Shown here piece by piece: positions 1 to 26,263 of a stretch of 64,000 bases of DNA. Within the stretch, counting starts at the first letter, position 1, and each line of letters opens with the position of its first letter. Under the pieces are notes generated by a model. The model ran no database searches. It was not told the DNA's origin and worked only from the letters and a program-made list of their open reading frames with translations. The DNA lies in IMG/VR virus record IMGVR_UViG_3300002220_000740, positions 1 to 64,000 of that record; one strand, written 5' to 3'. The position numbers and the translations under genes were made by a program. This DNA comes from a virus (lineage: Duplodnaviria; Caudoviricetes).

Positions 1-84
1 GGTGCCCTTTTGAGACACCCTCTTACGTATTTTAATATGCCGGCTCCTGGCAGCAAGCTGTCATCGCCTCCATATTAAAATACT

Positions 85-113
85 AAAGCCCCTCGCCAAA
101 GGCTCAGGGCTTT
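85..113. terminator. Hairpin with A/T tails, likely terminator downstream of the tRNA fragment
   Basis: AAAGCCC...GGGCTTT inverted repeat followed by a T-run. Confidence 0.55.
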
Positions 114-123
114 TTGTTTTTCT

Positions 124-165
124 TGCGGTGCGGACGGGACTCGAACCCGCGACCCTCGGCGTGAC
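124..165 (-). mobile_element. att core: 3' half of tRNA-Asp(GTC) (attR of a prophage, or attP)
   Basis: Reverse complement GTCACGCCGAGGGTCGCGGGTTCGAGTCCCGTCCGCACCGCA = anticodon GTC onward, T arm GCGGG-TTCGAGT-CCCGT, 3' acceptor strand. The 5' half is absent. It lies 124 bp from the integrase start. Confidence 0.9.
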
Positions 166-288
166 TTTGAAGGGTATAACCTTAAATCTCTTCCCCAATC
201 ATCAGGTTATACCATTAAAAGTTCTGAATAAGAAATTTCCAGGTACGGATCAAGTACGGGTAGCCGTACTCCATCTAAAACCTAAACA

Positions 289-1446
289 ATGCCCAGCATT
301 AAAGTCAGAAAGTATGGAAACTCAGTGTACGTGATCTACATTCACAGGAACAAAAAACTGAAAGTATTCTCCGGGGTCAAGGTTGATGACCAGCATTGGA
401 ACCTGGATGCTCCCCGTAAGAGCTGTCCCAACTACGAAAATGCCCTCGCTCAGATACAACAGATAGAAAGGAAACTTCTCGATGCATCCATGAGGGTAAG
501 ATCCATGGGCATAGATCCGGCAGTTGATCGTGTACGGGCAGAGTTCAAGTCGCAGGAGATTGTCAAGGAAGCTGAAAAGCCGTTCTGGGAGATATATAAT
601 TCATACCTTGTCATGCGTACCTTTAAAGCTTCTACCAGGCAGAAGGCTGAAGTCCATAAGCGAATGCTGGAGTATTTCTGCACCTTTGCGTGCTATGAGT
701 TCGACATAAAGACCTGGGACAAGCTCATGTTCGGCAGGCTCATCCAGTACCTCCTGTTCCAGCAAAAGATGGCAGACTCCACAATAGACAGGCTGGTAAG
801 AGGTGTGAAAGCTGTCCTGCGGTTTGCTTACCCTGCGGCGGATATCTCGTGGATGAAGTACAAACTCCTCAACACAGAGGTGGAACCGGTGGCTCTTACC
901 GAGGGTGAACTCAAATATCTCATTGACGCCGACCTGGGAGGGTACATGGAGAAGACCAGGGACCTGTTCGTGTTCCTGGCAACGACCGGCATGCGGTTCT
1001 CAGACTCTCAGTTGTTCGACCCCTCGTGGGTTACCGAGGAGCAGATCCTGGAGTTCAATCAGCTTAAGACCGGCGGGAAAGCCTATCCTCCCCTGTACGA
1101 AGCATCACGCAGGGTCCTGAGCAAGTGGGGCGGTATCCCACCGCAGATCTCCAACCAGAAGTTCAATGACTATCTAAAGGACCTGTTCGAGGAGCTGAAG
1201 CTGGATCGTCCCATCACGGATGTAGTTGTTCGCAATAAGGTTGTGTTCAGAACTGTCTCTCCCCTGTCAGCGGTAATCTCCTCGCATACCGCGCGCCGGA
1301 CGTTCATCACTCTCTGCCTGAATAAGGGAATGCCATTGCAGGATGTGATGAAGATGTCCGGGCATAGCGACTATAAGTCTATGCGTCCTTACATCAGGGT
1401 AACCAGGAAGCATTTACGGATGGTAGCAGACAAGTGGGATATTTGA
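289..1446 (+). CDS. int: Tyrosine integrase (Bacteroidetes type, N-terminal arm-binding domain)
   Basis: TGMRFSD (R), QLKT (K), SHTARRTF (HxxR), SGHSD (H), RPYIR (Y) catalytic residues. Confidence 0.95.
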   Translation: MPSIKVRKYGNSVYVIYIHRNKKLKVFSGVKVDDQHWNLDAPRKSCPNYENALAQIQQIERKLLDASMRVRSMGIDPAVDRVRAEFKSQEIVKEAEKPFWEIYNSYLVMRTFKASTRQKAEVHKRMLEYFCTFACYEFDIKTWDKLMFGRLIQYLLFQQKMADSTIDRLVRGVKAVLRFAYPAADISWMKYKLLNTEVEPVALTEGELKYLIDADLGGYMEKTRDLFVFLATTGMRFSDSQLFDPSWVTEEQILEFNQLKTGGKAYPPLYEASRRVLSKWGGIPPQISNQKFNDYLKDLFEELKLDRPITDVVVRNKVVFRTVSPLSAVISSHTARRTFITLCLNKGMPLQDVMKMSGHSDYKSMRPYIRVTRKHLRMVADKWDI

Positions 1447-3735: not shown

Positions 3736-4380
3736 ATGGAACAGTTAGTAAAAATTACAGACAATGATGGCAAGAAGGCTGTCAGCGCAAAAGAACTTTA
3801 TGACGCCCTTGGGCTTGATAAGACCTCTTGGGCACGGTGGTATCGTAAGAATATCATTAACAATGAGTTTGCCATTGGTGGGGAAGATTGGACATATCTC
3901 GGCATCAAGCAGAGTAAGCCTCGTAATCAGGACTTTGTATTGACAATAGACTTTGCAAAGAAACTTGCCATGCTTACTCGTACCTCACAAGGGGATACGG
4001 TAAGGAAGTACTTTATTGAAATAGAAAAGTCATTCCTGCACAGGGATAATCCTCTTACACCGCTTGACCTGTTCAGAACTCAGATCAAGGTAATGGAGGC
4101 ACAGGAAACCAGGATCAAGGCGCTTGAGTCTGCTGTTACCGATCTTGCGATCAAGACTGCAACTCGCCCTGATTACTTTTCCATAGTGGGATATGCATCC
4201 AAGAACGGAGTAAACATCACTCTCAGGATGGCACAGTCACTGGGACTGAAAGCCCGAAACCTGTGCATTAAAAACAACATGCCCATTGACTCAGTTCCTG
4301 ACCCGAGGTTTGGAAGAGTAGGGCTGTACCCTGCCCTCATGCTGCAAGAAGCATTCATAAGTTCAGGGATCACTCTTTAA
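3736..4380 (+). CDS. AntA/AntB-family antirepressor
   Basis: VSAKELYDALG...WARW...LTIDFAKKLAML...GDTVRKYFIEIEK AntA signature; C-terminal VPDPRFGRV motif. Confidence 0.85.
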   Translation: MEQLVKITDNDGKKAVSAKELYDALGLDKTSWARWYRKNIINNEFAIGGEDWTYLGIKQSKPRNQDFVLTIDFAKKLAMLTRTSQGDTVRKYFIEIEKSFLHRDNPLTPLDLFRTQIKVMEAQETRIKALESAVTDLAIKTATRPDYFSIVGYASKNGVNITLRMAQSLGLKARNLCIKNNMPIDSVPDPRFGRVGLYPALMLQEAFISSGITL

Positions 4381-7688: not shown

Positions 7689-7818
7689 TATACTTATCTT
7701 TAATCTACAGGCGAGCGACACACCGAGTAATCAGACAGTAAGACTTCTTTTCTTCCTATACTCAGTCGCTCGCTTTCCTTTCTTGCCATTGTTTGGGATG
7801 AAAATGAATTGTTCTTAC

Positions 7819-8421
7819 TTACTTTTCTTTTCCTATATTTTTTTTGAGTTCACGAAACTGCAGCTTCGCTTGCTCAGGACTAATAGTTCCCTTGTACAGT
7901 TCTTCTATGAACTCTTTAAGTTCCGCCACAGTATGCAGTTTGGGGAAGAGTTCTAAGTCATTTCGGGCGGCATTTTGACAGTTTGCGAAAATTGGAGCAA
8001 AATCAATGACCCGTATTTTATCCCACTCACTTTTAGATGGCTTAGGACACATCGTAGATTTAGTTCCTATTTCTTTACCGCAATAACCTACCAAATGGGA
8101 TACCTTACGATATACATCTCGGGGTAAAAGTATCAAAGCTTTATGGAGTACACGATCCATTTCTGAAACCTTCCCTATGACAACCTCATGCTGTTTAACA
8201 TGTTCCAAACTTCCACATTCGATTCCATAAGCCGTATCTGCTTCGTAAACAACCTTATCACAAGAACTAAATAGCTCAATATATACTTCAAGGCAACGTT
8301 CACGACGCCACTTTCGTGTTTCGTCACTACGCTCAAGCCAATGCCCAAGCCATATACCACCCAATGTGCCCCCAACTGCGATAAGACCCACAATTATGGC
8401 TATAACCGAGGTTTCATTCAT
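7819..8421 (-). CDS. Hypothetical protein with N-terminal TM helix (cassette-like cargo)
   Basis: 200 aa, hydrophobic N-terminus; TAACTTTG promoter motif at 8559-8566 on - strand. Confidence 0.7.
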   Translation of the reverse strand: MNETSVIAIIVGLIAVGGTLGGIWLGHWLERSDETRKWRRERCLEVYIELFSSCDKVVYEADTAYGIECGSLEHVKQHEVVIGKVSEMDRVLHKALILLPRDVYRKVSHLVGYCGKEIGTKSTMCPKPSKSEWDKIRVIDFAPIFANCQNAARNDLELFPKLHTVAELKEFIEELYKGTISPEQAKLQFRELKKNIGKEK

Positions 8422-8895
8422 AAGGATTATTTTCCAATTCGTTTAAATTAGCGTTACTCGAAAAACATAACGTATTTCCTTTATATACACCCAAAAAGTG
8501 CTCATATACATGCCAAAATAAGCTGATAGAAGCATTTGTTCTTGTCTTCTCTTGTAATCAAAGTTACGAATTTCTTAAGAATAGAATTGAAATAATAAGC
8601 CCCGTAGTGTTACCGGGGACTTATCCTCGATGCATTATTTTTTGGATATTTAAAATACTATTCCGACATTTGATATGCAGCAACTCCAAATCGAAGGAGT
8701 TTTTCCTCACACGAGGTAATGCAGCGAGACGAGCCCCGGATGCTCAGACAGGTCCGGGGCTTTTTATTTAATAATGTTATATATGAACTTACAATTAACG
8801 ATTTACTATTGGTGTATAATAACTCCGTAATTGAGCAAATAAGTTTACTTTTAGTAGACATTTAAACAAGGTGCAATGATTCTTAACCACTTAAA

Positions 8896-9837
8896 ATGAA
8901 GGATAAAGCAATATTTATTTTGTCAGGGTATGATTTTGAAAAAGACATAAGTTTTACAGTTGAATCTTTCTCTTATAAAATATCAAGGATTACAATGGAT
9001 ATTGAGAAAGAAGTGGGTTCAATAAACAATGATGAAAAAACATATCTCTCAATAGAGGGAGAATCAAGCCAGGAGGATTTTCTTGAAATGGCTCAAAACA
9101 TTAAGAATCTTCTATCCCTTGCAGTAGGTAAAAGAATAATATTTAACAAGCAGTTATACTATGATAAAGCAGATATAGAATTAATTTCTAGGGAGATGAC
9201 GTCCTCAATTAATGAAGGGCAGCAAATAGTACCAAATTTCAACATTGACCAATTTTTTATGCAAGTATTTAAGAAATACTCTGCCTTTTCCAAAGAAGAT
9301 AAAGACCAGTTTTTTATATCTACAGACTACTTAAATCAAACAAAAAATGGATTCATTGAAGATAGAGTACTTCACACAGCTATTGCCTGGGAATCTTTAG
9401 CTGATCACCTAATAATTAATTCAGATCTTCCGAAACATCTATTAGAATTGAGATTATTATTGAAATCTTCCATAAGAAGCTGGAGAGAAAAGAACCCGGG
9501 TTACGATACAAATGGTGAGCTTGGATCAAGAATTCTTGCCGCAATTGATAGAGAAAAATTGATAGATAAGTTAACAAAACTAGCTTTCCAATTTAAACTT
9601 AATTATAGACTACTAGAACTTGACTTTTACAAACTGAAAGAGCTACGTGATTTGGTTGCCCATTCTGGAAGAATCAATATTATCGGTTCTAAAGCTTATG
9701 GAATTATGGAACCAGCAATAAGAGGTATGCAAATAATACTCTTGTCCTGGGTGGGGTACTCAGGTCTAATTCACTCTCATAATGATAGATGGAATACACT
9801 AGAATCAATTAATAACTTCTACATTAAAACGGATTAA
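8896..9837 (+). CDS. HEPN-domain protein (ApeA-like), probable anti-phage RNase
   Basis: C-terminal LRDLVAH = RxxxxH; AWESL helix typical of ApeA/HEPN-like proteins; next to an R-M system. Confidence 0.65.
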   Translation: MKDKAIFILSGYDFEKDISFTVESFSYKISRITMDIEKEVGSINNDEKTYLSIEGESSQEDFLEMAQNIKNLLSLAVGKRIIFNKQLYYDKADIELISREMTSSINEGQQIVPNFNIDQFFMQVFKKYSAFSKEDKDQFFISTDYLNQTKNGFIEDRVLHTAIAWESLADHLIINSDLPKHLLELRLLLKSSIRSWREKNPGYDTNGELGSRILAAIDREKLIDKLTKLAFQFKLNYRLLELDFYKLKELRDLVAHSGRINIIGSKAYGIMEPAIRGMQIILLSWVGYSGLIHSHNDRWNTLESINNFYIKTD

Positions 9838-9840
9838 AGC

Positions 9841-9895
9841 GCCTAACAGGTCGGTGCAATTGCCTTCGCAACTGCACATACGCCGAACGTTAGCG
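9841..9895 (+). repeat. attC-like cassette recombination site
   Basis: GCCTAAC (RYYYAAC) ... GTTAGCG with an internal imperfect palindrome GTGCAATTGC/GCAACTGCAC, 3 nt after a stop codon. Confidence 0.6.
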
Positions 9896-10059
9896 TTCAT
9901 TGTGAAAAGACAAATCAAACGACAGAATAATATGGAACCTTTGCTGCATAAAAACAAAAAAGAAAACGGAAACCCACCGCACATTCAGACACATTTTATA
10001 TTGAAAAACGAGATATTGAAACTTATGTATTATTTTAGCGGCTTAATTATTCTGACAAA

Positions 10060-10260
10060 ATGAACAGAATTAAGGAAGTACTTGAAGAAAAAGGAATAAA
10101 ACAAACTTGGTTGGCTGAACAACTCGGAAAGAGTTATAATATGGTGAACGGTTACGTACAAAACCGACAACAACCACGACTTGAAGTGCTTTATGAAATT
10201 GCTAAAATATTGGACGTTGAAGTTAAAGACTTACTAATTGAACAAAAAGATAAGAAATGA
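10060..10260 (+). CDS. XRE/Cro-C1 HTH regulator (controller-like) of the R-M operon
   Basis: MNRIKEVLEEKGIKQTWLAEQLGKSYNMVNGYVQNRQQPRLEVLYEIAKILDV; overlaps the mod start. Confidence 0.9.
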   Translation: MNRIKEVLEEKGIKQTWLAEQLGKSYNMVNGYVQNRQQPRLEVLYEIAKILDVEVKDLLIEQKDKK

Positions 10261-12890
10261 GCAACATATACGAACAAAGATTTTTTTCCGCCTTGAAAGA
10301 CACGTTTATTGGACACCCGATTAAAGGTAAGTCAGGCTATGTGAATTTAATGGACATCAAAGCACAGTACTTTGCTGAGATTGAACCTTACATAAAAGCA
10401 GAAATAGACAAACAGATTGAAGCAAAATTCAGAGAAGAATTATTTGAAAAGCTTTACAGCTTTTTTGATTGTTACCTTAACGAAACTGGAACTGTTTTTT
10501 TCGCCAATTCTCAAATTCACAAAAACCTTTACGAAAAAGTCTATTCAGACCGTGATGATGTTGCCTTGTTTTGGAAAACACAGAAACTCTATTACGTAAA
10601 ATCGGAAGCGAATTATGAAGATTTACAAACCGAAGTAAACGGCATTAAAATACTGTTTGATGCTTCTGAAATAAAACACGCCAAAGGCAACGAGAAAAAA
10701 GCCATTCAATTTTTTATAGTAAAAGCCACCAAGGAAGAAGTGGTCTTCAAAATTCGCTATCAGGAAAACAACAAATACGACCGTCTAAAAGAATATTTGG
10801 GTTTAGATAAAAATAATGATTTAATTGATAAATGCTTGGATGAGTATAATTCGTCACTTCATCCAAACTTGATTTTTGAAAAAACACAAATTGACCAAAC
10901 TGTACTTGACAAGAAAACCGACAGCAGAAAATGCTTGTATATTGAAAATATTGACGATACCTTAAAATCAGTAAAAGTTGAATATAGTATTAACGACTTG
11001 ACTTTGATGTTGCAATATTTACATAAGAAAGGGATTATACTTTATGAAGAAGACCTGAAAAAAATATTTAGCATCTATAAACGCCAAAACGAAATTGATT
11101 ACTTTATACACAAAGATGCCGAAGGTTTTTTAAAAGAACAGTTTGACATTTATGTGTATAATTGGCTGTTTAACGACTTGGAAACAGACTTTGATGCAGC
11201 TACGGTAAAACGAATGCAAAACATCAAAAAAATTGCGCACAAAGTAATCGAATATATTGCAAGGTTTGAAGATGAACTCAAAGCCATTTGGGAGAAACCT
11301 AAGTTTGCAAAAAATTGCAATTATGTTCTGACTCTTGACAAATTAGCCGATAAGATTGAGCTAATTGAAAAGCTGATTACCAGCCCGGGATGGAAAAATC
11401 AGGTAGATGAATGGAAAGAACTTCATAAGGAATGGCTAGATGATAAAGGCGAAATAATAAAAAAAGAATGGTCTGAATTTGCTTTTTCTAATGAAAAAGG
11501 ATTTGTAAAGGAAATCATAGTCAAAGACAAGCTAAACGTTAAATACCAGTATTTACCTATTGACACAAAATTCTTCCCTGAATATAAATTTCAGATTCTT
11601 TCTTCATTTAATAATTTACACAGTAACCTTGATGGAACCATCATTAAAACTGATAATTGGCAAGGATTAAATACAGTAAAAGAAAAATATTTAGATAGAA
11701 TAGACTTAATTTATATTGACCCTCCATTTAACACCGGTAGTGATTTTAAATATAAAGATGCTTATCAAGATAGCACTTGGCTATCCCTTATTTTTGATAG
11801 AGTACTAATAACTAATAAATTATTAAGAAAGTCAGGGACTTTTTATTTCCATATTGATTATAGAGCAAATTATCTAGGTAGAATATTACTTGATAGAGTT
11901 TATGGTAAAAACAACTTTTTAAATGAAATAATATATGGTTATAGGATTCAAGGTATAAAGCGAAATGCCTATGCAAATAAACACGATACAATATTTGCGT
12001 ATACCAAAACTAATCCTGACTTAAACATTCATAAATTTCATCCTGAAAAAGAAAAACAGATTTATAATAAACCTTTCATAGATACTCAAACAATTTCACC
12101 TGATTTTTCTAAAATTAGCCAAAAGGATAGGGATTTAATTCTGAATTCAATTAAAAATGGCACTCCATTAAATGATAAATTCAAAGAAACTTTATTTAAT
12201 CAATACTTTGCTGAAACATTTATACGTGATATATGGGACCATGATAAAACAAAGCCCTTAATATCTGGCTCCTCAGAATATTTAAAATTTCAAACACAAA
12301 AGTCAGAAGGCTTGTTGTCTAGAATCATTGAAAACTCCTCTGATAAAGGTGATACGGTTTTAGATTTTTTCTCAGGTAGTGGAACAACTATAGCAACTGC
12401 CCATAAATTGAAGAGAAAATGGCTTGCAATGGAAATGGGTGAACATTTTAATGGTACAAATATTCCGAGATTAAAATGGACTCTTATTGGAAATTGCATT
12501 GGCATATCGAATGATGCTAATTATAGAGGTGGTGGGTTTTTTAAATATTATGAATTAGAGCAGTATGAAGAGGTATTGGCGAATGCCAAATTTCAATGGC
12601 AAGGCAATTTAGGACAAATTCAAGTAGAAAAATACAGTTTTATGCAAGACCAAAAATTGCTGGATGCCATTGAAATTGATTATGCGAACAAAAACGCTAA
12701 ATTGGTTTTTGAAACTCTATACCAAGATGTTGATATAGCCGAAACCTTATCAAATATCTCAGGCAAGCACATAAAACAGATTTTTGAAGACAAAGTAGTG
12801 TTTGAAGATGGCAGCGAAGTAGTGTATGCCGAAATGACTTTCGAAAAATACCCCTGGGTTAAGCCATTGATTTGGTGGAACAGCAAATAA
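10257..12890 (+). CDS. mod: Type III R-M methyltransferase subunit (Mod)
   Basis: LIYIDPPFNTG (motif IV) preceding VLDFFSGSGTT (motif I); GGGFFKYYEL; adjacent Res. Confidence 0.9.
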   Translation: MSNIYEQRFFSALKDTFIGHPIKGKSGYVNLMDIKAQYFAEIEPYIKAEIDKQIEAKFREELFEKLYSFFDCYLNETGTVFFANSQIHKNLYEKVYSDRDDVALFWKTQKLYYVKSEANYEDLQTEVNGIKILFDASEIKHAKGNEKKAIQFFIVKATKEEVVFKIRYQENNKYDRLKEYLGLDKNNDLIDKCLDEYNSSLHPNLIFEKTQIDQTVLDKKTDSRKCLYIENIDDTLKSVKVEYSINDLTLMLQYLHKKGIILYEEDLKKIFSIYKRQNEIDYFIHKDAEGFLKEQFDIYVYNWLFNDLETDFDAATVKRMQNIKKIAHKVIEYIARFEDELKAIWEKPKFAKNCNYVLTLDKLADKIELIEKLITSPGWKNQVDEWKELHKEWLDDKGEIIKKEWSEFAFSNEKGFVKEIIVKDKLNVKYQYLPIDTKFFPEYKFQILSSFNNLHSNLDGTIIKTDNWQGLNTVKEKYLDRIDLIYIDPPFNTGSDFKYKDAYQDSTWLSLIFDRVLITNKLLRKSGTFYFHIDYRANYLGRILLDRVYGKNNFLNEIIYGYRIQGIKRNAYANKHDTIFAYTKTNPDLNIHKFHPEKEKQIYNKPFIDTQTISPDFSKISQKDRDLILNSIKNGTPLNDKFKETLFNQYFAETFIRDIWDHDKTKPLISGSSEYLKFQTQKSEGLLSRIIENSSDKGDTVLDFFSGSGTTIATAHKLKRKWLAMEMGEHFNGTNIPRLKWTLIGNCIGISNDANYRGGGFFKYYELEQYEEVLANAKFQWQGNLGQIQVEKYSFMQDQKLLDAIEIDYANKNAKLVFETLYQDVDIAETLSNISGKHIKQIFEDKVVFEDGSEVVYAEMTFEKYPWVKPLIWWNSK

Positions 12891-12901
12891 TTTGAAAAAC
12901 A

Positions 12902-15829
12902 ATGGCAAAAATAGTTTTAGAAAAATTAGTTAAAGACAATCCAACAAGTTTGCCTGAGTTCTTCAAGAACTTGGATAAAGAAACCTTTGGAATTGACTGG
13001 AAGCTACACGAATACCAACAAACGGCACTCAAACACGCTTTGAATACGCTTTACTATTTCTATAACCAGAAAGATCATTTATCTAATCATTACCAATCTC
13101 AAACCAATGAAGATTGGAAACGAGAAATGAGTTATGCCAATGACAGCACTCATTTTGGTTTGCTTGGTCAATATTTTGAAATAGAAGACAATCAAATACC
13201 TTACACACAATTTTTGAATCGTGCCTCGCTTTGGATGGCAACAGGTTCTGGAAAAACATTGGTATTGATTAAACTCATTGAGTTTTTACATCAGTTAGCC
13301 ACTTTTAATTACATACCTAAAAACGACATATTAATTCTTGCTCCTAAACCTGAAATACTCAATCAGGTTAAAGAACATATTGTAGTTTTCAATAAAAACA
13401 GTTCTGTAAAAATTAATCTCAAAGATTTAAGAGAGTTTGAGAAATCAAAACACATTCAAACCTCACTCTATGAACCTGATGGTATCACAGTTTTTTATTA
13501 CCGAAGCGACAATATTACAGATGTCGATAAAACCGAGCAATTGAGTTATAAAACGGTTTTGAATAATGGGAAATGGTATGTACTACTTGATGAAGCACAC
13601 AAAGGCGATAAAGAAGACAGTATCCGTCAGGCTTATTACTCTATTTTAGCATCTAAAGGTTTTATTTTTAGTTTTTCCGCTACTTTCACTGATACAGTTG
13701 ATATTGTAACAACAGCCTATAATTTCAACTTAAAAAAATTCATAGAATCAGGTTATGGAAAGCATATTACTGTAAGTGGTCAAGAGTATAAAAATTGGAA
13801 CAAAAACAAAGGAGAGTTTTCTGAAACCGATAAAACGGAAATGGTTGTAAAATCTTTATTGGTACTAACAGCCATTAAGAAAGAAACTGCATTTATTAAA
13901 ACGCACCATCCCGGTTTATATCACAATCCTTTATTGATTACTATTGCAAACGAAGTAAATACAGTAGATGCAGAACTAAAACTATTTTTTAAGCAATTAG
14001 CTATTGTAGCATCAGGCAAATATGATATTGAAAAAGCAATTGAAGACTTAAGTACAGATTTGTTAATAAACAAAGCCTACCAATTCAATACTGCGGAAAT
14101 TCCTTCTTCGTTTATTCAAATTATTCAGAACATAAGTAAAGAAGATATATTAAAGTATGTTTTCAATGCTTCTGCATTTGGGAAAATAGAGTACACTCGA
14201 ATTTTAAATAATACCCGTGAAGTTGCTTTCAGATTAAAAACGGCAGAAGCAGGTCAGCATTTTTGTTTGTTAGTAGCATCAGATGCAACCAAATGGAGTG
14301 AAAATGTTTTAGAGAATTACGAATACACCGAAACTCCATTAACTAAATCGTATTTCAAGACAATCAATAGTCAAGAAAGTGACCTTAACATTTTGTTGGG
14401 TTCTAGAATTTTTACCGAAGGTTGGGATAGTAACCGTCCTAACGTAGTGAACTTTATCAATATTGGTGTTGATGAAGGTACACAGAAATTTGTTTTACAA
14501 GCAATTGGTCGCGGTGTACGAATTCAACCTGTGCCAGGCATTCGTAAACGTTTAGACTATATCGTTAATACAGAAGAAAGTGAAACACTTTCAAGATACA
14601 TTGATATCAAAGCAAAGGCGGAAATATTAAAAAGAAACTTGCCTCTAGAGAGTTTGTTCCTTTTTGCCACCAAGAAAGAAGTAATTAAAAATATTACTGA
14701 AAATTTAAGTAGAGAAAAAGATGCTGACGATTGGAAAACTGTGAAACACCTTTCAAGAACTAAAATTCCACAAGAATTACTTATTCCGAAATACGAAGAA
14801 GTAATTGCTGAAATTCCTGCTTATTCAATTAATAAAGAAGAATACAATGAATTAGTTGATTTTGTTGGAGCCGAAGCAGGTTCAAAAGACAAAATTGTAT
14901 TGATGCAAGCACCTATCAATGTTTCAAAAACCTTAGTTTCAGCTTTGGAAAAAATCAGAATTGAAGGTAATTTCAATTTCACAGTTTCCCATTCTAGTCG
15001 AAAACCAATTGACAATTTATTACTTCTTAATCACCACTTTCATCAAAAACCAAAACTTTTAAAGTCATTTGAACCTCTACTAACAGAAATCAATCACTTT
15101 GATAAAATTGAAGTTGCTTATCTTCCTGATAATGAACTTGGATTGTTAGAACAGGCGATTTTATCCTCCTTGAAAGGTAACAAGTCCGTATATAATTCTG
15201 TTGGTGATATTGTTGCTGCATATAATGCTAAAAAATTAAATGACCAACAACTTCAAGAACAACTTGACCTTTTTAATAATCAAGGAAAACCAAATACCTA
15301 CACTTACAACGGATTAAAAATTGAACTCAATACTGACTTTTTAGTAGAGCATTATTACAATCCGATTTTATTGACTTCAGAAGCACATAAACAACTTTTC
15401 AAACATATTATTTGGGTTCCTTCTGAAGTTGAGTTATTAAAGAAACTACACGATAATAGAGACAAGCTTGAAAAGTTTGAATGGTGGTATTTTTCTAAAA
15501 TTGACCAAACAACTGATGATGTTTCAATTCCTTACTACGACACAAGAGAACAAGAATACAGAAATTTTTTTCCTGACTTTGTTTTTTGGTTAAAAGCGAA
15601 ATACACTGACAAGTTAATTATTAAATTTATTGACCCTAAAGGAAATGTTGTTGGAACTGGAAACGCAGAAGATAAAGCTAAAGGTTACGAGAATATTTTC
15701 AATGACCACTCTATAAAATATAATAACAAAGAAGTACAAATAGACCTTTTCTTTTATAACGAACCGACTGGGGTTAACGAATCTGTTAAAGATTATTTTA
15801 CCAAGGACTTTAAAAAAATGTTTGAATAA
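12902..15829 (+). CDS. res: Type III R-M restriction subunit (Res)
   Basis: MATGSGKT, LDEAH, FSATF, EGWD, QAIGRGVR helicase motifs; C-terminal PDF...IDPKG nuclease. Confidence 0.9.
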   Translation: MAKIVLEKLVKDNPTSLPEFFKNLDKETFGIDWKLHEYQQTALKHALNTLYYFYNQKDHLSNHYQSQTNEDWKREMSYANDSTHFGLLGQYFEIEDNQIPYTQFLNRASLWMATGSGKTLVLIKLIEFLHQLATFNYIPKNDILILAPKPEILNQVKEHIVVFNKNSSVKINLKDLREFEKSKHIQTSLYEPDGITVFYYRSDNITDVDKTEQLSYKTVLNNGKWYVLLDEAHKGDKEDSIRQAYYSILASKGFIFSFSATFTDTVDIVTTAYNFNLKKFIESGYGKHITVSGQEYKNWNKNKGEFSETDKTEMVVKSLLVLTAIKKETAFIKTHHPGLYHNPLLITIANEVNTVDAELKLFFKQLAIVASGKYDIEKAIEDLSTDLLINKAYQFNTAEIPSSFIQIIQNISKEDILKYVFNASAFGKIEYTRILNNTREVAFRLKTAEAGQHFCLLVASDATKWSENVLENYEYTETPLTKSYFKTINSQESDLNILLGSRIFTEGWDSNRPNVVNFINIGVDEGTQKFVLQAIGRGVRIQPVPGIRKRLDYIVNTEESETLSRYIDIKAKAEILKRNLPLESLFLFATKKEVIKNITENLSREKDADDWKTVKHLSRTKIPQELLIPKYEEVIAEIPAYSINKEEYNELVDFVGAEAGSKDKIVLMQAPINVSKTLVSALEKIRIEGNFNFTVSHSSRKPIDNLLLLNHHFHQKPKLLKSFEPLLTEINHFDKIEVAYLPDNELGLLEQAILSSLKGNKSVYNSVGDIVAAYNAKKLNDQQLQEQLDLFNNQGKPNTYTYNGLKIELNTDFLVEHYYNPILLTSEAHKQLFKHIIWVPSEVELLKKLHDNRDKLEKFEWWYFSKIDQTTDDVSIPYYDTREQEYRNFFPDFVFWLKAKYTDKLIIKFIDPKGNVVGTGNAEDKAKGYENIFNDHSIKYNNKEVQIDLFFYNEPTGVNESVKDYFTKDFKKMFE

Positions 15830-16265
15830 TGCCAACCCTTCACAGCCACACACATTGTCTAGTCGCTCAAAAAAGCCAACTCATGACCAAAACCAGCCAA
15901 AAAGCTTGCCTACTTAAATACTCTCCAGACAGAAAGGAAGTTGCAAATTGAAAAAAATGACGAAAATCAATGGACACCAGGCGGTAACAAGTGGTATAGT
16001 TTTAATTGCCCTCCAGCCAACGGGAAAATCTTTCAGTGGGATTGACTTAAATAAAGATTTCTTCTACATTTGGTAGGCAGCATTCCCTTATACCATTCGG
16101 GGCTTTTCGCCTCATGCAGCGAGACATAATAAGGATGTGCTGTCATTTATTTTAGTACACAAGAGAACACTCAAAAACTAATTTAAGGTTCAATCTTGCC
16201 CTTCTGATGTGATGTAAGGCTATTTTACAACATGAGAGGTATAATAAAAACCCGGTTTTTGATGG

Positions 16266-16610
16266 TCAAGAGTGATCTGCATTTAATTTTCTCAACCTTT
16301 GGATCAGTTTAAAGGGTTTAACACCGGGTGCGTGCTGTTGGTTGGAAAATCGTTCTAATATTTGTTTCTCAGCATCAGGTAGGTTGAGGTTTCTATAAAT
16401 AATAGCAAGTTGCTCATAATAGCCGGGGGCAACACCACAGCCTTCAGCCTTTGACTCTGCTTCAGTAGCATCAATGATCCTTAAAAGTAGGTCTATTGCC
16501 AAATCATACTTTTTTTCTTTTTTCAATTGAAAAGCCTTATCACAATATGCTGTGTAGTGCTTATTATCAATATATCCTGCCAGTACTACCATTGCATTAG
16601 TTATTATCAA
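16266..16610 (-). CDS. TPR-like helical hypothetical protein
   Basis: YDLAIDLL...YYEQLAIIYRNL helical-repeat pattern. Confidence 0.55.
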   Translation of the reverse strand: MIITNAMVVLAGYIDNKHYTAYCDKAFQLKKEKKYDLAIDLLLRIIDATEAESKAEGCGVAPGYYEQLAIIYRNLNLPDAEKQILERFSNQQHAPGVKPFKLIQRLRKLNADHS

Positions 16611-16612
16611 AG

Positions 16613-17242
16613 TTAAAATAACGGTTGGTCATTGTTGCTGAGACAATTAGGCTTTATGATTTTGTCCGTTTTATTATCCTTAATAAGTAAATACCGATTT
16701 TTAAACATGTAGCAAAAGAATATTTCTGACTGCAATGCCCTCTCTTCAACAACCATTCGGTAGTGTTCCCGTGCCGTCATCGCAAATATTTGCGAAAAAA
16801 GCATCAGCCCGATTATTATTGACCATGTCCAATCTAAAATAAAGAATGAAGCAATAAATGCTATCCCTACAAGACCTGATATGGAGTTTTTCAACGGAAA
16901 ATTCGGAGATGATGCCCATATTCCAAATAATCCAAGTGGAATACCGAGCAGTAGTATCCATTTTTTAAGTACAATGGCTACAACTATATCAGCAACAACA
17001 ATGATATAAGGTAAAAATGTCCATATTCCATTAATATTATGATCTAGTTTTGTTCCAATAACTCCCAAGAAATCACTATTATATTCACAACCGAATGTAA
17101 TTTCTTTTTTGTCATGTGCATGTTTAACTTGCTCGTGAGTGGTGTAAGGGAAATTAACGAAGTGGGATAAACGATATGGAGCACCCTGCTCAATTATTTG
17201 TTGCTCAACTCTCCCAAATCTCGCTTCGTCGTCTTTGCTCAT
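16613..17242 (-). CDS. Multi-pass membrane protein
   Basis: About four hydrophobic segments; TAGTTTTG promoter motif at 17265-17272 (-). Confidence 0.75.
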   Translation of the reverse strand: MSKDDEARFGRVEQQIIEQGAPYRLSHFVNFPYTTHEQVKHAHDKKEITFGCEYNSDFLGVIGTKLDHNINGIWTFLPYIIVVADIVVAIVLKKWILLLGIPLGLFGIWASSPNFPLKNSISGLVGIAFIASFFILDWTWSIIIGLMLFSQIFAMTAREHYRMVVEERALQSEIFFCYMFKNRYLLIKDNKTDKIIKPNCLSNNDQPLF

Positions 17243-17412
17243 GTTTTTCTGTGTTTTGTATAATCAAAACTACAAAATAAAAGCAGTAATAAAAAGGGCT
17301 GCCATTTCTGACAGCCTTTAGACCAGGGTACAGATCTGCTGTAACAAACGTGTGTGGTTCTTTGAACTGTGCCCTGGTTTTTTATTTGACCCAACTACTA
17401 AACTATATAACT

Positions 17413-19983: not shown

Positions 19984-21129
19984 ATGATAACACTTCTTAA
20001 AATAGACAGTGCGGACAAGATCCGCGTTATCAACCTTGAGCCTACTGATAGTGGGATCAAGCGTACAGCCGGTGTATATGGTGGCAACCTGGTTGAGACA
20101 TTCACACCATGCAGCCCCAAGAACATTGGCAAATCCAACGAAACCAGGCTATCAGACCAGATAGCATCAGAGATTATCTCTACTGTAAATGAGAAATGCA
20201 ACGAAGGTTATGTTTGTATTCCTGTATCATTTGATGAAGGTGCCTCTGAAGCAGATATTCGTAAGTATATCAAGGAAAATGCTACAGCAGCTCCCCAGGC
20301 AATGCTTGCTAAGCAATATGAAGAAAAATACGCCGACTTTAAGAATGGTGTGCTTTGCAGCCCCAAGCTTGATGGACAGCGCTGTATGGCTGTTGTGCCT
20401 AAGAGTGGAGACATTATACTCTGGTCACGCGGGGGTAAGCAAATCGAGACAATGGGTCATATAGTAAGAGATCTTGAAATCCTTCGAGACAATGGATTTG
20501 TAGGTACCCTTGATGGAGAACTGTATTACCATGACAAGGGCGCTGAGAACTTCCAGGATATCATGAAAGCAATCAAGAAGTATCGTCCGGGAACGTCGGA
20601 AGACGTACAGTACTGGGTATATGATATCATCTCATTAACCGGAACTGCTCAGGACAGAGCTTTTGCATATGGTGTAGCTATCCATGGCTGTAATCTTACT
20701 CATATTCATGTAGTGCCTCAATTTATGGTACATTCAAAGAGAATAGCAGATGACTTTCACGAAGAAAATCTTGCTCAAGGCTACGAAGGAACAATGCTGA
20801 AGAACGCACTATCCCTATACCAGCCTGACAAACGGTCGTCAGATCTGCTCAAGCTAAAAGATTTTCAGGATGCAGAGTATCAAATTGTGGATATTGTGCC
20901 TATGGAACGTATGCCAGAGTGTGGAAAGGTTGTTTGCAACAGGATGTATGATGATGGTACATTCAAAACATTCACAGCTACACCCAAGGCAAGCTATGCT
21001 GATCGCAAAGAACTCCTGGATAACAAGAAAGATTACATTGGCAAGATGGCTACAATACAGTATTTCAGCCTGACTGATGATGGACTACCAAGGTTCCCAG
21101 TGATGAAAAGCATTCGTGAGGATATATAA
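19984..21129 (+). CDS. ATP-dependent DNA ligase
   Basis: SPKLDGQR (motif I), LDGELY, YEGTMLK, LLKLKDF, PRFPV. Confidence 0.95.
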   Translation: MITLLKIDSADKIRVINLEPTDSGIKRTAGVYGGNLVETFTPCSPKNIGKSNETRLSDQIASEIISTVNEKCNEGYVCIPVSFDEGASEADIRKYIKENATAAPQAMLAKQYEEKYADFKNGVLCSPKLDGQRCMAVVPKSGDIILWSRGGKQIETMGHIVRDLEILRDNGFVGTLDGELYYHDKGAENFQDIMKAIKKYRPGTSEDVQYWVYDIISLTGTAQDRAFAYGVAIHGCNLTHIHVVPQFMVHSKRIADDFHEENLAQGYEGTMLKNALSLYQPDKRSSDLLKLKDFQDAEYQIVDIVPMERMPECGKVVCNRMYDDGTFKTFTATPKASYADRKELLDNKKDYIGKMATIQYFSLTDDGLPRFPVMKSIREDI

Positions 21130-21131
21130 GC

Positions 21132-21200
21132 GGAGTGCAGCTCGCGGACGAGAGTAACTTGTGCGCACAAGTGGACGGTGGTTTGAATCCATTCACTCCA
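21132..21200 (+). tRNA. tRNA-like/pseudo-tRNA with palindromic anticodon arm
   Basis: GGAGTG/CACTCC acceptor, GGTGG-TTTGAAT-CCATT T arm; anticodon arm is the perfect palindrome ACTTGTGCGCACAAGT. Confidence 0.55.
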
Positions 21201-21207
21201 ATCAAAG

Positions 21208-21283
21208 TAGAATGTAGCTCAGTTGGTGAGAGCAAGGGGTCTTAAACTCAGAGGTCGCAGGTTCGAATCCTGTCATTCTACCA
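21208..21283 (+). tRNA. tRNA with weak anticodon stem; positional anticodon TTA
   Basis: TAGAATG/CATTCTA, GCTC/GAGC D arm, AGGTC variable loop, GCAGG-TTCGAAT-CCTGT; loop TCTTAAA. Confidence 0.75.
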
Positions 21284-21284
21284 A

Positions 21285-21622
21285 ATCATTTTCGTTGACA
21301 CAATTAGTAACGCTACTCAGGACGCGGCTTCGACGCCGCCACCTCCACCAATAGTTTCTGGACTTAAACCAGATGGTGGACCCGCTGATTGTCTTCAGAT
21401 CAGCCCCTGTGTTGAGCTCACGTTAAAAAGCTCATCTCATAAGGGGGTGTAATGGATTTGACTGGTAGTCAGTATGAATTGCCGAGAAGATGATCTGCCT
21501 ATAAACGGCAAATTTTCAATCGCATCTGAAGGAAGGGTTGTTCCGATGACCCGTCAGCAGCTGAAAGCTGTTGCCTAAAGCGTTTCCGGTAGCTCCGGAT
21601 CGGGGAGTACGACAACTCCCCT
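21285..21622 (+). ncRNA. ssrA: Circularly permuted (two-piece) tmRNA
   Basis: Acceptor piece ending CACCTCCACCA (21350) precedes the 5' piece GGGGGTGTAATGGATTTGAC (21443). G3-U70 pair present. Tag ORF at 21507-21578 after ATAAAC. Confidence 0.85.
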
Positions 21623-21706
21623 CTCATCACACCCCTTGCTTATCTCCGAATGCACGCATGCAAACGCTATGAGAAGCAAGGGGTTTTCTATGCCTATCCA
21701 TAAACT

Positions 21707-21976
21707 ATGAATACATTCAGCAAACCCAAGGAAGCCATCACGAAAATCGTGAAGGTAATTGCAAGCTGCACAACCGAGCAACAGATGCTGACAGCTTACA
21801 ACATGATCCAAAACTTCAACAGAACTGCCGCTTATAACGGCGTGATAAACACTGATGAAGTTGCCTCGTATCTACGAGGTGCTTACGATCTCCAGGAACT
21901 TAAACTCTGGAAGGTCAGCCCGCAAGTCGGGGATTTATTGTGCGAAGAAATTCAAACAGAACATTCTGTTGTATAA
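21707..21976 (+). CDS. Hypothetical protein
   Basis: 89-aa ORF with an AT-rich leader. Confidence 0.6.
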   Translation: MNTFSKPKEAITKIVKVIASCTTEQQMLTAYNMIQNFNRTAAYNGVINTDEVASYLRGAYDLQELKLWKVSPQVGDLLCEEIQTEHSVV

Positions 21977-22059
21977 CAAGAAAAAGAGTTTATCAAAAGA
22001 ATTTAATCAGCATTTAATATTGTTAAACCCAACTATTATTTTAATTTTACACTACAATC

Positions 22060-22590
22060 ATGGAAAAAAGTTTCGTAACAGTGGTCGGTATATCCGACAT
22101 GAGGCAGGACAAGAATGGTAACGATTTTCGTACCATCACAGTTCAGAATCCTGTATTTCAGACAGTCGTCGATGAAGCATCAGGCGATGTAAGAACTGAG
22201 CTTACCCCAGCTCTGAAGGGGACAAGGAGTGCATATGAGGAATCTTACCTTGACGGCACCAAAGACTGGCTTGCCAATGCACAGGTAGGTCACATCATCG
22301 CAGGCAGGGTTGAGAAACGTGCTGTTGAACAGTACGATTTCATTGGCAAGGATGGTAGTGCTCGCATTGCATCATCGTACACATGCCCTGTGTTCGGTGA
22401 CACAACCCAGGAAAGCTGGGAGAGTGTGGTGAAAACTGCATTCCGCAACAGCGGTCATCCGCTTCCGGGCGATACAACTGCAAAGAAGTCGGAAGCTACG
22501 GCTGAAGCTCCTGCAGAAGCACCTCGCGTTGACATAACCGCAGGCGTTACTGCTCCTTCATCGAAGAAAGCAGTTGTTCAGGAGTTCTAA
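22060..22590 (+). CDS. Hypothetical protein, possibly ssDNA-binding (OB-like)
   Basis: Beta-rich N-terminus, low-complexity Ala/Pro tail, followed by a terminator hairpin at 22603-22626. Confidence 0.55.
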   Translation: MEKSFVTVVGISDMRQDKNGNDFRTITVQNPVFQTVVDEASGDVRTELTPALKGTRSAYEESYLDGTKDWLANAQVGHIIAGRVEKRAVEQYDFIGKDGSARIASSYTCPVFGDTTQESWESVVKTAFRNSGHPLPGDTTAKKSEATAEAPAEAPRVDITAGVTAPSSKKAVVQEF

Positions 22591-22650
22591 CAACATAAAG
22601 TGGAGCCTGGTAACCAATCCAGGCTCTGCTTTTAATAACAAGTCAAGAAA

Positions 22651-23028
22651 ATGAATAGAGTAAGCATAGCAACTGAAGTGTGGAAGACCGAGAACGGCAG
22701 CATTGCCCTCAGCGACCGCAACAACATGACCGACGAGTACCTTCAGAACATACTTAAGTATTCTGAGCGCCGGTACATGCATTTCAACAACATGGCGGTA
22801 TCAGTATCCCTGGAACTGGAGAGACTTGAGAAAGAGTCATCAAAAGCATACGCTACCAGCGTAAAGTTCAAAGATCTGATCCATAGCATCCGCAAGGAAG
22901 CTGACCGTCGTGGTATTACAATACGCTCTCTGGCGGATGAGAACCCTGACAAGTTTGACATTCTCCGGAATGATTTCAAACTGGACCAGGTTCAGGAACA
23001 ATTAGAACTTGCATTTGAACACGCATGA
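22651..23028 (+). CDS. Hypothetical protein
   Basis: 125 aa, coupled to polA by ATGA. Confidence 0.65.
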   Translation: MNRVSIATEVWKTENGSIALSDRNNMTDEYLQNILKYSERRYMHFNNMAVSVSLELERLEKESSKAYATSVKFKDLIHSIRKEADRRGITIRSLADENPDKFDILRNDFKLDQVQEQLELAFEHA

Positions 23029-24914
23029 TCTATTTCATCTCTAACCAGGCACGCTGGCAGAGCTCATTCGCAACGGCTACCATAAACAATGTGATAGAGT
23101 TCTGCCAGTACGCCGGTAAGATTGGTGTAGACACCGAAACTACCGGCTTTGATTACATAAATGGACGCATTATTATGCTCCAGATAGGTAATGAAACAGA
23201 CCAGTTTGTCATTGATGCACGCAATGTGGATATCCTTCCGCTTAAACCCATCCTTGAATCCAAGTCTATCCTCAAATACCTGCAGAACGTCAAGTTCGAT
23301 TATAAGTTCTTACGCTCAGCAGGCATAACACTTGAGAATGTGGTGGATACCATGCTACAAGAGCAAATTTTGCTCAATGGCAAACAGTGGGAAGGGTTTG
23401 GACTGGATGATCTCGTGATTAAGTACATGAAGATTGCGCTTGACAAGTCAACCAGGGCAGAATTTAGCACATGGGGCAATCGTGAGTTTACCGATAAGCA
23501 AATTATATATGCCGCAGACGATGTCAAATACCTGATTCCTATATCTGACCTGCAAGAGTTTGAGGCAGCGAGACATAACCTCGGACTTATATTCAATTTG
23601 GAGAACTCCGCAGCCCTGGCAATAGCCGATATATCATTTAATGGTATAGCAATTAACCGCAATGCCTGGCTGAATATAGCCGCTACTGCAAAAGAGGAAA
23701 CACGCAAGATTGAACTGGAACTTGATCAGCTGGTAATGGCTGAGCCTGCGATGTTCGAAGCACTTCAGCCTGAAGCACTACAGCAGGATCTCTTCATCCC
23801 TACCAGCGAACTGCGTAAGATCGAAGTTAAATGGTCTTCACCTGCTCAGGCACTGGAGGTAATGCAAATGATTATCCCCAAATTGGAGAATGTGAATGCC
23901 GATGAGCTTGCACCATTCCGGTTTGAATCTCCTATCATAGACAAATACATCACTTATAAGGAGTTTGCCAAGCGGTCAACATCATACGGTGAGGGTTTTC
24001 TGGACAATGTCAAATCAGACGGCAGGATTCACACCAATTTCAGACAACTGCTGGTAACCGGCAGACTCAGCTCTTCAGAGCCGAACATGCAACAGATCCC
24101 AAGCAGCAACCTTTATCGTAACTGCTTTGAGCCTGGGTATCCCGGATGGGTGTTTGTAAGTGGTGACTATGCGTCACAGGAATTGGCTCTGATTGCTTAT
24201 GCCAGCGGAGATCCTGTATGGCTTGGTGCACTGGAAACGGGTAAGGACCTGCACAGCGTATGTGCCGAGATGGTATTCAAGGACGAATGGCTTGCAGCAG
24301 CTGAACCTGATTGTGCATTTTACAAGAACCAGGCGAAAGCCAAATGTGAATGTAAGCGGCATAAGAAACTCAGGCAGTCTGTCAAAGAGATCAATTTTGG
24401 TCTTGCTTACGGAATGACAGAAATGAAACTATCAAGCAAACTGCGCATTGAGGTCAACCAGGCAGCCAAACTGATCCGTGATTACTTTAAGATATTCCCC
24501 AACATCAAGCAATACCTTGATAACAGTGGGTTATTCGGAGTACAGCGCGGCTACATCAGAACCCTCGCACCCTGGGGACGTATCCGCTGGTTTGACAGGT
24601 GGCGTGCAGAAGGCATGGAATGGTCTGACCAAGGAAGCATAGAGCGTGAGTCAAAAAACACTCCTATACAAGGAGCTGGTGCTGACATGGTCAAGTATGC
24701 CCTGATACAGATCCGTAACTACATTCGCTACAGTCAGGCGCCGGTGCAGATCGTGATGCAGGTACATGATCAGATTGATACGATCTGTCCTGCGGACTAC
24801 GCTCCTCAGTGGAGAGTGAAACTCAAAGAGCTGATGGAAGACGCAGCTTTGAAAACAATCCCTTCAGGGCTACTGAAGGCTGAAGTTAACATCTCACTCG
24901 TGTGGGAGAAATAA
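23025..24914 (+). CDS. polA: Family A DNA polymerase with 3'-5' exonuclease
   Basis: DTETTG, YAADDV exo motifs; TGRLSSSEPNMQQIP; DYASQEL (A); KEINFGLAYG (B); QVHDQI (C). Confidence 0.95.
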   Translation: MIYFISNQARWQSSFATATINNVIEFCQYAGKIGVDTETTGFDYINGRIIMLQIGNETDQFVIDARNVDILPLKPILESKSILKYLQNVKFDYKFLRSAGITLENVVDTMLQEQILLNGKQWEGFGLDDLVIKYMKIALDKSTRAEFSTWGNREFTDKQIIYAADDVKYLIPISDLQEFEAARHNLGLIFNLENSAALAIADISFNGIAINRNAWLNIAATAKEETRKIELELDQLVMAEPAMFEALQPEALQQDLFIPTSELRKIEVKWSSPAQALEVMQMIIPKLENVNADELAPFRFESPIIDKYITYKEFAKRSTSYGEGFLDNVKSDGRIHTNFRQLLVTGRLSSSEPNMQQIPSSNLYRNCFEPGYPGWVFVSGDYASQELALIAYASGDPVWLGALETGKDLHSVCAEMVFKDEWLAAAEPDCAFYKNQAKAKCECKRHKKLRQSVKEINFGLAYGMTEMKLSSKLRIEVNQAAKLIRDYFKIFPNIKQYLDNSGLFGVQRGYIRTLAPWGRIRWFDRWRAEGMEWSDQGSIERESKNTPIQGAGADMVKYALIQIRNYIRYSQAPVQIVMQVHDQIDTICPADYAPQWRVKLKELMEDAALKTIPSGLLKAEVNISLVWEK

Positions 24915-24924
24915 TATAAATCAA

Positions 24925-25782
24925 ATGAAAAGACAGTACAAATTTGCTGAAGAAGCAGACCTTATTGATGTAGCAGTACCGGCTAACACCGATACCTACA
25001 TTGCAGTATCCAACGAAGTCGCTCTGGTAGGCATCCGCTCAGGACTTACCAGCATGGGACTTAAGGTGCAGCAGGAAGAGTACAAGCTCTCCAACAACAA
25101 ACAGATCGCAACCGGTCGCCTATACGTAGGAGATCTGGAAAACGGTCTTCAGCGTTGTATCGGCTGGATCAACTCCTATGACAAGAGCAAAGCTCTGGGC
25201 ATAGCCTGTGGTGCAAATGTGTTCATCTGCGCCAATGGGATGTTTACCTCTGAGATCGTGACCCTGCGCAAGCATACCAAGAATGTCCTCGATGACATGA
25301 ACGGCATGATTGCAAAAGCGCTCCGCTATCTTGAGGTGAGCTTCAACAACGCCAAGCAGTCCAAGACCTACTTTGAAAAGGTGATCCTGGACAAGAGTGC
25401 AGTTAACGAGATCATCGGACAGCTCTACCTGGAGGAAGAACTCATAAAGAACTACCAGCTCTCGATCATCAAGGATGGTCTGGAGAAGGATACCAAGTTC
25501 GATATGCGTGCTCATCCCACCATGTGGAACCTGTACAACCTGCTGACCGAGACCTTCAAGCGCTCACATCCGTCTACTTACCTGGAAGACCATGTCAACC
25601 TGCACAAGTACATGATGGGTAAAGTCAAAGAGTGGAACCTGTTGGGCATTCCGACCCCGTACACTCTGGTTGAAGATGTGCCGGCTCCCAAGCTGATCCT
25701 GCCAATCGAGGCAAGTATCGTGGTGCCGGAAATCATCGTACCCGAGCCAGTGCTTGCAGAAGACCTTAATCTCCAGTTCTGA
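24925..25782 (+). CDS. DUF932-like protein
   Basis: INSYDKS...G..VFICANGM signature; MWNLYNLLTE. Confidence 0.75.
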   Translation: MKRQYKFAEEADLIDVAVPANTDTYIAVSNEVALVGIRSGLTSMGLKVQQEEYKLSNNKQIATGRLYVGDLENGLQRCIGWINSYDKSKALGIACGANVFICANGMFTSEIVTLRKHTKNVLDDMNGMIAKALRYLEVSFNNAKQSKTYFEKVILDKSAVNEIIGQLYLEEELIKNYQLSIIKDGLEKDTKFDMRAHPTMWNLYNLLTETFKRSHPSTYLEDHVNLHKYMMGKVKEWNLLGIPTPYTLVEDVPAPKLILPIEASIVVPEIIVPEPVLAEDLNLQF

Positions 25783-26015
25783 TGGAGCCGCAGTTACTCA
25801 TAAGACCCAGACCGGAGGAGCAAAGCGCTCCTTCGGCTCCTGAGCCTGAGAAACTCTACACGGTGCCTGTAGCCAGGATCTGTAACAAGACCTACATGAT
25901 TGCAGCGCGCAGTAAGAAAGAAGCTGAGGACAAAGCTTTCGAAAAGGCTATCAACGACAACTGGAGCGATGAGACTCCTGATTTTGAGGTGTATTCATAC
26001 ATAACCAATGGCTGA
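25782..26015 (+). CDS. Small hypothetical protein
   Basis: Coupled ORF; IAARSKKEAEDKA motif. Confidence 0.55.
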   Translation: MEPQLLIRPRPEEQSAPSAPEPEKLYTVPVARICNKTYMIAARSKKEAEDKAFEKAINDNWSDETPDFEVYSYITNG

Positions 26016-26262
26016 AGAATCAAAAGACTTCATAAAGTTCAAGGACATTAAACATGTGCTCGTGCTTGTGGGGCTTGAGGACGGTACTCACCAAGTACTC
26101 ACTAATCGTAAGACGGAACTTACCATCTTAAAGATTATTGAGAACCTGAGTACCAACCTCAAGCTGAACCTCATTGAAACTCCCCTGGAGGGCTTGGATA
26201 TGGAATACCCTGATGACGTACAGTCATTCCAGGATTACCTGAAAGAACTTAGCAAACGATAA
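26008..26262 (+). CDS. Small hypothetical protein
   Basis: Coupled ORF in the operon. Confidence 0.55.
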   Translation: MAEESKDFIKFKDIKHVLVLVGLEDGTHQVLTNRKTELTILKIIENLSTNLKLNLIETPLEGLDMEYPDDVQSFQDYLKELSKR

Positions 26263-26263
26263 G

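Follow-up and report, generated by a model that had tools for sequence, protein, structure and literature searches.

The IMG/VR virus record IMGVR_UViG_3300002220_000740 is a single contig of 92,245 bp, and the window analyzed here comprises its first 64,000 nucleotides (bases 1-64000). The record very probably contains a crAss-like prophage of a Rikenellaceae bacterium, whose tRNA-Asp gene served as the insertion site for an ordinary tyrosine integrase. There is little doubt that it covers a lysogen from junction to junction, with host DNA, attL, a complete crAss-like phage genome (166-92048), attR and again host DNA. The crAss-like phages are usually called non-integrating, which makes this fully resolved instance of true lysogeny a rare one. 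The integration mechanism is classical and of the Campbell type; the unusual part is the phage lineage. Four forms of the attachment site back the prophage: attL and attR in the record, the empty attB site in related hosts and the attP site in a related free phage. An earlier note, made from the sequence of the window, had already suggested a true prophage; this reading is supported here, and the matching attP of the related phage is an addition to it.

The left attachment site is located at bases 125-165, where the minus strand carries the 3' part of a tRNA-Asp, starting with G34 of the GTC anticodon and ending with the 3' end of the tRNA, as the earlier note had observed. This core recurs exactly (41/41) at 92049-92089 of the same contig; the repeat is thus 41 bp long and not 42 bp, as had been stated. 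An intact tRNA-Asp with the same core had been predicted beyond the right edge of the window, and ARAGORN detected it, as tRNA-Asp(gtc), at c[92049..92124], enclosing the right copy of the core. Prophages and islands with tyrosine integrases that target tRNA genes are described by the Campbell model, and sublocation classes of tRNA-targeting integrases were reportedly defined by Williams in 2002.

CCGTAC/GTACGG motifs are present in both phage arms, two of them in the P arm (91985, 91996) and three in the P' arm (243, 254, 264). Of the 12 CCGTACT heptamers in the genome, four fall within approximately 235 bp around the core, with 0.03 expected, and the CCGTAC motifs of both arms are all conserved in the attP of the related free phage, within DNA that is otherwise 76-77% identical. 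We regard these motifs as good candidates for arm-type binding sites of the integrase. A terminator-like site was found at 105-86 on the minus strand, and the terminator hairpin of the host tRNA (approximately 86-113) remains beside the dead tRNA fragment at attL. After the rebuilt tRNA, a hairpin followed by a T run was seen by eye in the phage P arm (approximately 91962-91990); this putative terminator is retained in the related phage with altered stem bases. In the proposed course of integration, the integrase would have recombined the phage attP, carrying the 3' part of the tRNA-Asp, with the tRNA-Asp gene of the host (attB). This would leave an intact tRNA-Asp at attR, followed by the putative terminator hairpin in the phage arm. 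At attL, a dead tRNA fragment of 41 bp would remain, adjoining the integrase gene and the old terminator of the host.

A 29-mer across the 5' end of the tRNA and the right flank was found exactly in 11 species-representative genomes, all of which are metagenome-assembled genomes (MAGs) of Bacteroidales, five of them named Rikenellaceae and one Rikenella. A model of the empty site (321 bp) was made by joining bases 1-124 to the intact tRNA and this in turn to the right flank. Comparison of this model with locus L003, located on a 245-kb contig of a Rikenellaceae MAG, yielded one ungapped high-scoring segment pair of 297 bp with 93.9% identity that covers bases 25-124, the tRNA and the right flank. 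The identity was 92.3% to locus L006, on an 892-kb contig, and 82.9% to locus L008. The flanks are therefore contiguous around a single tRNA-Asp in uninfected Rikenellaceae MAGs, showing that this locus is an empty attB site. All matches of the flanks were to Rikenellaceae/Bacteroidales MAGs, and the host belongs to the Bacteroidota. Host DNA on both flanks, as expected in the earlier note, was thereby found. On the left side this holds for the sequence from approximately base 23-26 on, where the homology to host DNA begins; the motif resembling insertion sequence ends or REP elements that had been pointed out in bases 1-24 was not matched in any of the host loci retrieved. The major capsid protein (MCP) of the phage was unmatched in five flank-matching host genomes.

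In these Rikenellaceae/Bacteroidales MAGs, the tRNA-Asp resembles an insertion hot spot. Locus L011 contains a 44-aa C-terminal integrase remnant (1287-1418), which is 66% identical to the integrase of the window and located 1.4 kb from the tRNA. In locus L012, a second 24-nt copy over the 3' end of the tRNA (plus 4 flank bases) is present at 4710-4733, 3.9 kb away. Loci L007, L012 and L013 have a common, unrelated sequence abutting the tRNA-Asp on its left.

The closest relative in IMG/VR, IMGVR_UViG_3300037486_000490, is a free phage of 92,500 bp with an MCP and a TerL that are 91% and 84% identical, respectively; its integrase, 80% identical, is encoded in the middle of the contig, beside attP. 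The DNA of this relative is colinear with 82159-92082 of the record and then directly with 125-1440, showing that both prophage ends are joined there across one core, which constitutes an attP site. The relative has a single copy of the core and no full tRNA-Asp. The ends of its contig correspond to 43.8-45.0 kb and 45.6-47.0 kb of the record, inside the RNA polymerase (RNAP) gene. Since these map points are adjacent, the free genome and the prophage are circularly permuted, and the cut lies at att, which agrees with what the Campbell model demands. The core of the relative matches the tRNA over 33 nt (T arm and 3' strand of the acceptor) and diverges in 7 nt of the would-be anticodon loop. 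If both integrases cut alike, strand exchange would take place within the 33 nt common to both phages and the tRNA, and not in the anticodon loop. A search of the viral collection with the pattern of core plus P' arm matched only this known relative, and in a megablast search with the first 25 kb none of 50,697 phage records was matched.

The repeats could also belong to a phage genome that is circular or episomal and encodes a full tRNA-Asp of its own together with a duplicated fragment; the site would then be an attP, and no integration would have taken place. The record is indeed classed as a virus, tRNAs are common in phages, and another tRNA is encoded at 21208. However, the 92,245-bp record lacks a terminal repeat, and the related free phage has just the 33-nt fragment. 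The outer sequences match bacterial chromosomes, in which they flank a single tRNA-Asp and run into bacterial DNA and not into each other. A circular attP form, which the earlier note had named as an alternative, is likewise contradicted by the missing terminal repeat and by the contig ends, which are not adjacent in related hosts. The probability of such an episome is negligible in our view.

The open reading frame (ORF) 289-1446 matched PF00589 (Phage_integrase) with 42 bits, the cut-off being 27.1, and in an alignment to XerA (4A8E) all six catalytic residues are kept: R (GMRFSD), K (TGGKA), H-x-x-R (HTAR), H (GHSD) and Y (RPY). The intact tyrosine integrase adjoining the tRNA fragment, as described in the earlier note, was thus recovered with its full catalytic set, and so was its contiguity with the virion RNAP gene and with replication genes of the crAss type. 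The integrase's closest named homologues (24-32% identity) are encoded by temperate Bacteroidota phages that are not crAss-like, namely Porphyromonas gingivalis prophages, LoVEphage and Phocaeicola/Bacteroides TP1 phages. Among the 50,697 phage records, none that is crAss-like has a homologue of the window integrase at E<=1e-5. These matches would fit an origin of the integrase in other Bacteroidota mobile elements.

The assignment of the phage to the crAss-like phages is based on TerL, the portal, the MCP and the giant RNAP. TerL, the portal and the MCP were identified with PHROG matches. A tblastn search with TerL matched 160 of the 50,697 phage records, and 159 of the 160 are crAss-like or FpV4-type. 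The lone other match, to Cellulophaga phi4:1, was weak and partial; this phage is not crAss-like and served as outgroup of the tree. TerL is 38.5% identical to that of Flavobacterium FpV4-type phages, 33-36% to that of Suoliviridae and 25-29% to those of Crevaviridae, Intestiviridae and Steigviridae. An ORF of 3987 aa contains a DFDVD motif (DxDxD type) at residue 2935, and tblastn with its residues 2500-3400 matched 95 phage records, all crAss-like and many annotated as 'putative RNA polymerase' (best 5e-23). The whole protein gave no match in a PDB sequence search or a PHROG scan, and homology was detected only via tblastn of the motif region. This ORF was assigned as a giant virion RNA polymerase, which would be packaged into the virion.

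In a quick tree of the single marker TerL, rooted on the long-branch outgroup Cellulophaga phi4:1, the phage groups with 12 IMG/VR relatives in a clade of its own (SH-aLRT 86). This clade is part of an unresolved three-way split, the other two branches being (Crevaviridae+Intestiviridae) and (FpV4+Suoliviridae+Steigviridae). The earlier note had proposed marker trees as a check, and TerL places the phage among the Crassvirales families and not outside of them. [quoted passage not shown]

A second integrated prophage was found in this clade. When 401 genomes of the host's order were searched with the MCP, one strong match with 66% identity was obtained, located on contig G716:C25 (96,369 bp) of a Bacteroidales MAG. 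The contig contains an exact 36-bp repeat (8091-8126 and 90511-90546) that is the 3' part of an intact tRNA-Pro(ggg), and an integrase gene is located at attL (8196-9434, 412 aa). The prophage of approximately 82 kb is colinear with the window phage, with identities of 56% for TerL, 50% for the portal, 65% for the MCP and 44% for PolA, and its early module is colinear with 19984-40520 of the window at 30-53% amino acid identity. The flanks of 8 kb and 5.8 kb hold bacterial genes, housekeeping ones among them, and encode a DbpA-type helicase, a pyridine-nucleotide disulphide oxidoreductase, a GNAT protein and a protein sorted by the type IX secretion system. G716:C25 is an independent, well-flanked integrated crAss-like prophage. 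An ORF of 259 aa following its integrase gene is also integrase-like according to tblastn.

Several points weigh against an integrated prophage in the record. The host DNA amounts to 124 and 121 bp only, and the junctions are those of the assembled contig. An MCP search among 349 representatives of the host family and 401 of the order revealed no host genome with this prophage; the lack of a match in the 349 family genomes indicates that such prophages are rare among species representatives. Neither a repressor nor an excisionase was recognized with Pfam or PHROGs, the small ORFs next to the integrase included. Two scans of the metagenome collection, one for the predicted attP of this exact phage and one for the core plus P' arm, gave no match, and its attP was not found in the viral collection either.

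With flanks this short, an assembly chimera has to be considered, in which the free phage (attP) and the uninfected host (attB) were wrongly joined by way of the 41 bp that both have in common; the close relative does occur in a free attP form. Current metagenome assemblers, however, finish with k-mers >41, and each junction would then need to exist in real reads. Furthermore, the product is arranged exactly as in the Campbell model, the intact tRNA being at the correct end, and the integration of G716:C25 between long bacterial flanks shows that integration is real in the lineage, making an artefact unlikely for the window as well. We therefore regard a chimera as very improbable. Beyond the att sites, the record extends by just 124 bp and 121 bp. 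A simple de Bruijn branch point at the usual k-mer sizes does not account for these end points, which may stem from trimming by a provirus caller.

The missing repressor and excisionase and the missing attP would also agree with a prophage that is truly integrated but defective (cryptic) and unable to excise or to form virions. Against this, the att repeats are still identical and the catalytic set of the integrase is intact. The hallmark ORFs checked (integrase, PolA, virion RNAP, MCP, portal and TerL) are full-length under code 11, and the gene order is colinear with that of the free relative, which has a similar size of 92.5 kb. A cryptic prophage is thus unlikely, and we suggest that the prophage is still inducible. 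Lysogeny would be kept by a repressor, possibly the winged-helix ORF 1976-2356, and the AntA-domain protein might act in induction (Table 1).

Table 1. Features of the prophage and its flanks. Positions are those of the record, which are identical to those of the window up to 64000.
Feature	Position	Strand	Basis or remark
Host (Rikenellaceae) DNA downstream of tRNA-Asp	1..124		Alignment to related MAGs; holds host tRNA terminator hairpin
attL core, tRNA-Asp 3' part, anticodon G34 to 3' end	125..165	-	One copy of the 41-bp exact direct repeat
Phage P' arm of att site	166..288	+	Three CCGTAC/GTACGG motifs
Tyrosine integrase, 385 aa	289..1446	+	PF00589, catalytic residues
Candidate winged-helix DNA-binding regulator, 126 aa	1976..2356	-	Atlas neighbours
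AntA-domain protein (antirepressor family)	3736..4380	+	PF08346 AntA, 1.2e-14
Low-GC accessory island with Type III restriction-modification system	7800..17300		GC, Pfam
Replication/early module: ATP-dependent DNA ligase, PolA, SNF2/DEAD helicase, RIIA/RIIB-like, exonuclease	19984..40520	+	Pfam, PHROG
Giant virion RNA polymerase (predicted), 3987 aa	44772..56735	-	DFDVD motif, tblastn
Late (virion) module, start	56753..64000	-	Continues past the window to MCP, portal and TerL
MCP	82163-83617		PHROG major head protein, 1e-97
Portal	84810-87176		PHROG, 2e-121
TerL	87244-89289		PHROG, 2e-134
Right end of record: P arm, attR, intact tRNA-Asp, right host flank	attR 92049-92089; tRNA-Asp to 92124; flank 92125-92245		

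ORF 1976-2356 has Atlas neighbours of the MarR/TrmB/RepL winged-helix type (score 0.94, 150-160 shared features) and is conserved in the free relative IMGVR_UViG_3300037486_000490; it gave no Pfam or PHROG match. It is possibly a lysogeny regulator, and we offer this as a lead only. A phage-plasmid lifestyle does not apply to the integrated element, the sole link to it being the faint RepL-like Atlas neighbour of this ORF.

The accessory island is part of the early region of the prophage, has a GC content of 31-35%, compared to 45-50% elsewhere, and encodes the Mod (10257-12890, N6_N4_Mtase 1e-35) and Res (12902-15829, ResIII 1.6e-15) subunits of a Type III restriction-modification system. In the closest free relative, the stretch from 6.9 to 20.2 kb is replaced by approximately 3.7 kb, which indicates that the island is recently gained cargo. 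A tRNA at 21208-21281 (Rfam RF00005, 53.6 bits) has the anticodon TTA according to ARAGORN and is of the ochre-suppressor type. In the relative, such a tRNA is also present (L014, 14169-14237), along with a tRNA-Met. There was no sign of TAA recoding in the window phage, all large ORFs being open under code 11. Directly after the suppressor-type tRNA, a permuted transfer-messenger RNA is encoded at 21290-21565 (Rfam RF04321, 66.9 bits, gathering score 47). An RIIA-like protein (746 aa, 7e-62) and an RIIB-like protein (469 aa, 8e-38) are encoded as a pair at 32558-36210 in the replication module, and this pair is conserved in the tRNA-Pro prophage.

Integrases are not confined to the two tRNA-Asp phages and the tRNA-Pro prophage. 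The relatives L061 and L037 have MCPs that are 70-72% identical to the one of the window phage, and their integrase is only 36% identical. In L061 (1405-2760), the integrase gene is located beside a 45-nt 3' fragment of tRNA-Asp that has AATCTGCTTTAAAGCTGCT-type repeats on both sides. At the contig end of L037 (2-700), the C-terminal part of an integrase is encoded that is 91% identical to that of L061. Relative to the late module, the integrase cassette of L061/L037 has the opposite orientation and lies on the other side. One TerL clade includes four cases: the integrated and the free tRNA-Asp phage, whose integrases are 80% identical, the L061/L037 lineage and the tRNA-Pro lineage. Integrative lysogeny might be a recurrent trait of this family-level clade of environmental crAss-like phages, a proposal that we consider evenly balanced. 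If it is true, crAss-like phages have repeatedly acquired, or long kept, tRNA-targeting integrases, and such prophages would deliver defence islands to their hosts, like the Type III restriction-modification system here.

Of the abundant phages that infect Bacteroidota, the crAss-like phages are the best known, and how they persist is an open question. Cultured members have been reported without lysogeny genes, and crAss-like prophages were not detected in RefSeq Bacteroidales (PMC7511551, PMC8375218). Their persistence has been attributed to a carrier state, phase variation or a phage-plasmid state (PMC8375218, PMC7511551, PMC10983915). The prototype crAssphage (Carjivirus communis) is non-integrating and behaves as a phage-plasmid, and lysogeny is rare in Crassvirales overall (PMC10983915). 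The prophage described here indicates that classical integrative lysogeny exists among crAss-like phages, at least in environmental lineages. The mechanism itself is textbook knowledge. Such prophages are shown here to carry defence cargo, and the integrase, the 41-bp core and the candidate arm sites are concrete reagents for tests.

Some crAss-like phages have been suggested to be temperate before. [quoted passage not shown] In the passages searched, these reports contain no resolved attL/attR/attB/attP set with a complete genome. For the window phage, all four att forms are resolved, and the host is an environmental Rikenellaceae bacterium and not a gut Bacteroides.

The window phage resembles the Crassvirales and crAss-like phages (crAss001, Carjivirus communis, phi14:2 and the FpV4-type Flavobacterium phages, which are unassigned) in its TerL (26-38% identity), portal, MCP and giant virion RNAP, in its genome size of approximately 92 kb, in the opposed replication and virion modules and in its Bacteroidota host. 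It differs from the described members, which are reported without integration genes, in that it carries an integrase and is integrated, and its TerL clade consists of environmental IMG/VR contigs only, separate from the four ICTV families. With temperate Bacteroidota phages such as the P. gingivalis prophages, LoVEphage and TP1 it shares a homologous integrase, but those phages are not crAss-like. As in classical tRNA-targeting prophages, the integrase is encoded beside attL, attP holds the 3' part of the tRNA and the gene is rebuilt on integration; the direct repeat of a few tens of base pairs and the arm-type repeats on both sides of the core are likewise shared with them. The identity of the core reaches the anticodon in the window phage, but only the anticodon stem in the relative with the 80%-identical integrase. 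In contrast to the classical tRNA-targeting prophages, the integrated element here is a crAss-like genome of 92 kb, which is of the podovirus type and encodes a virion RNAP.

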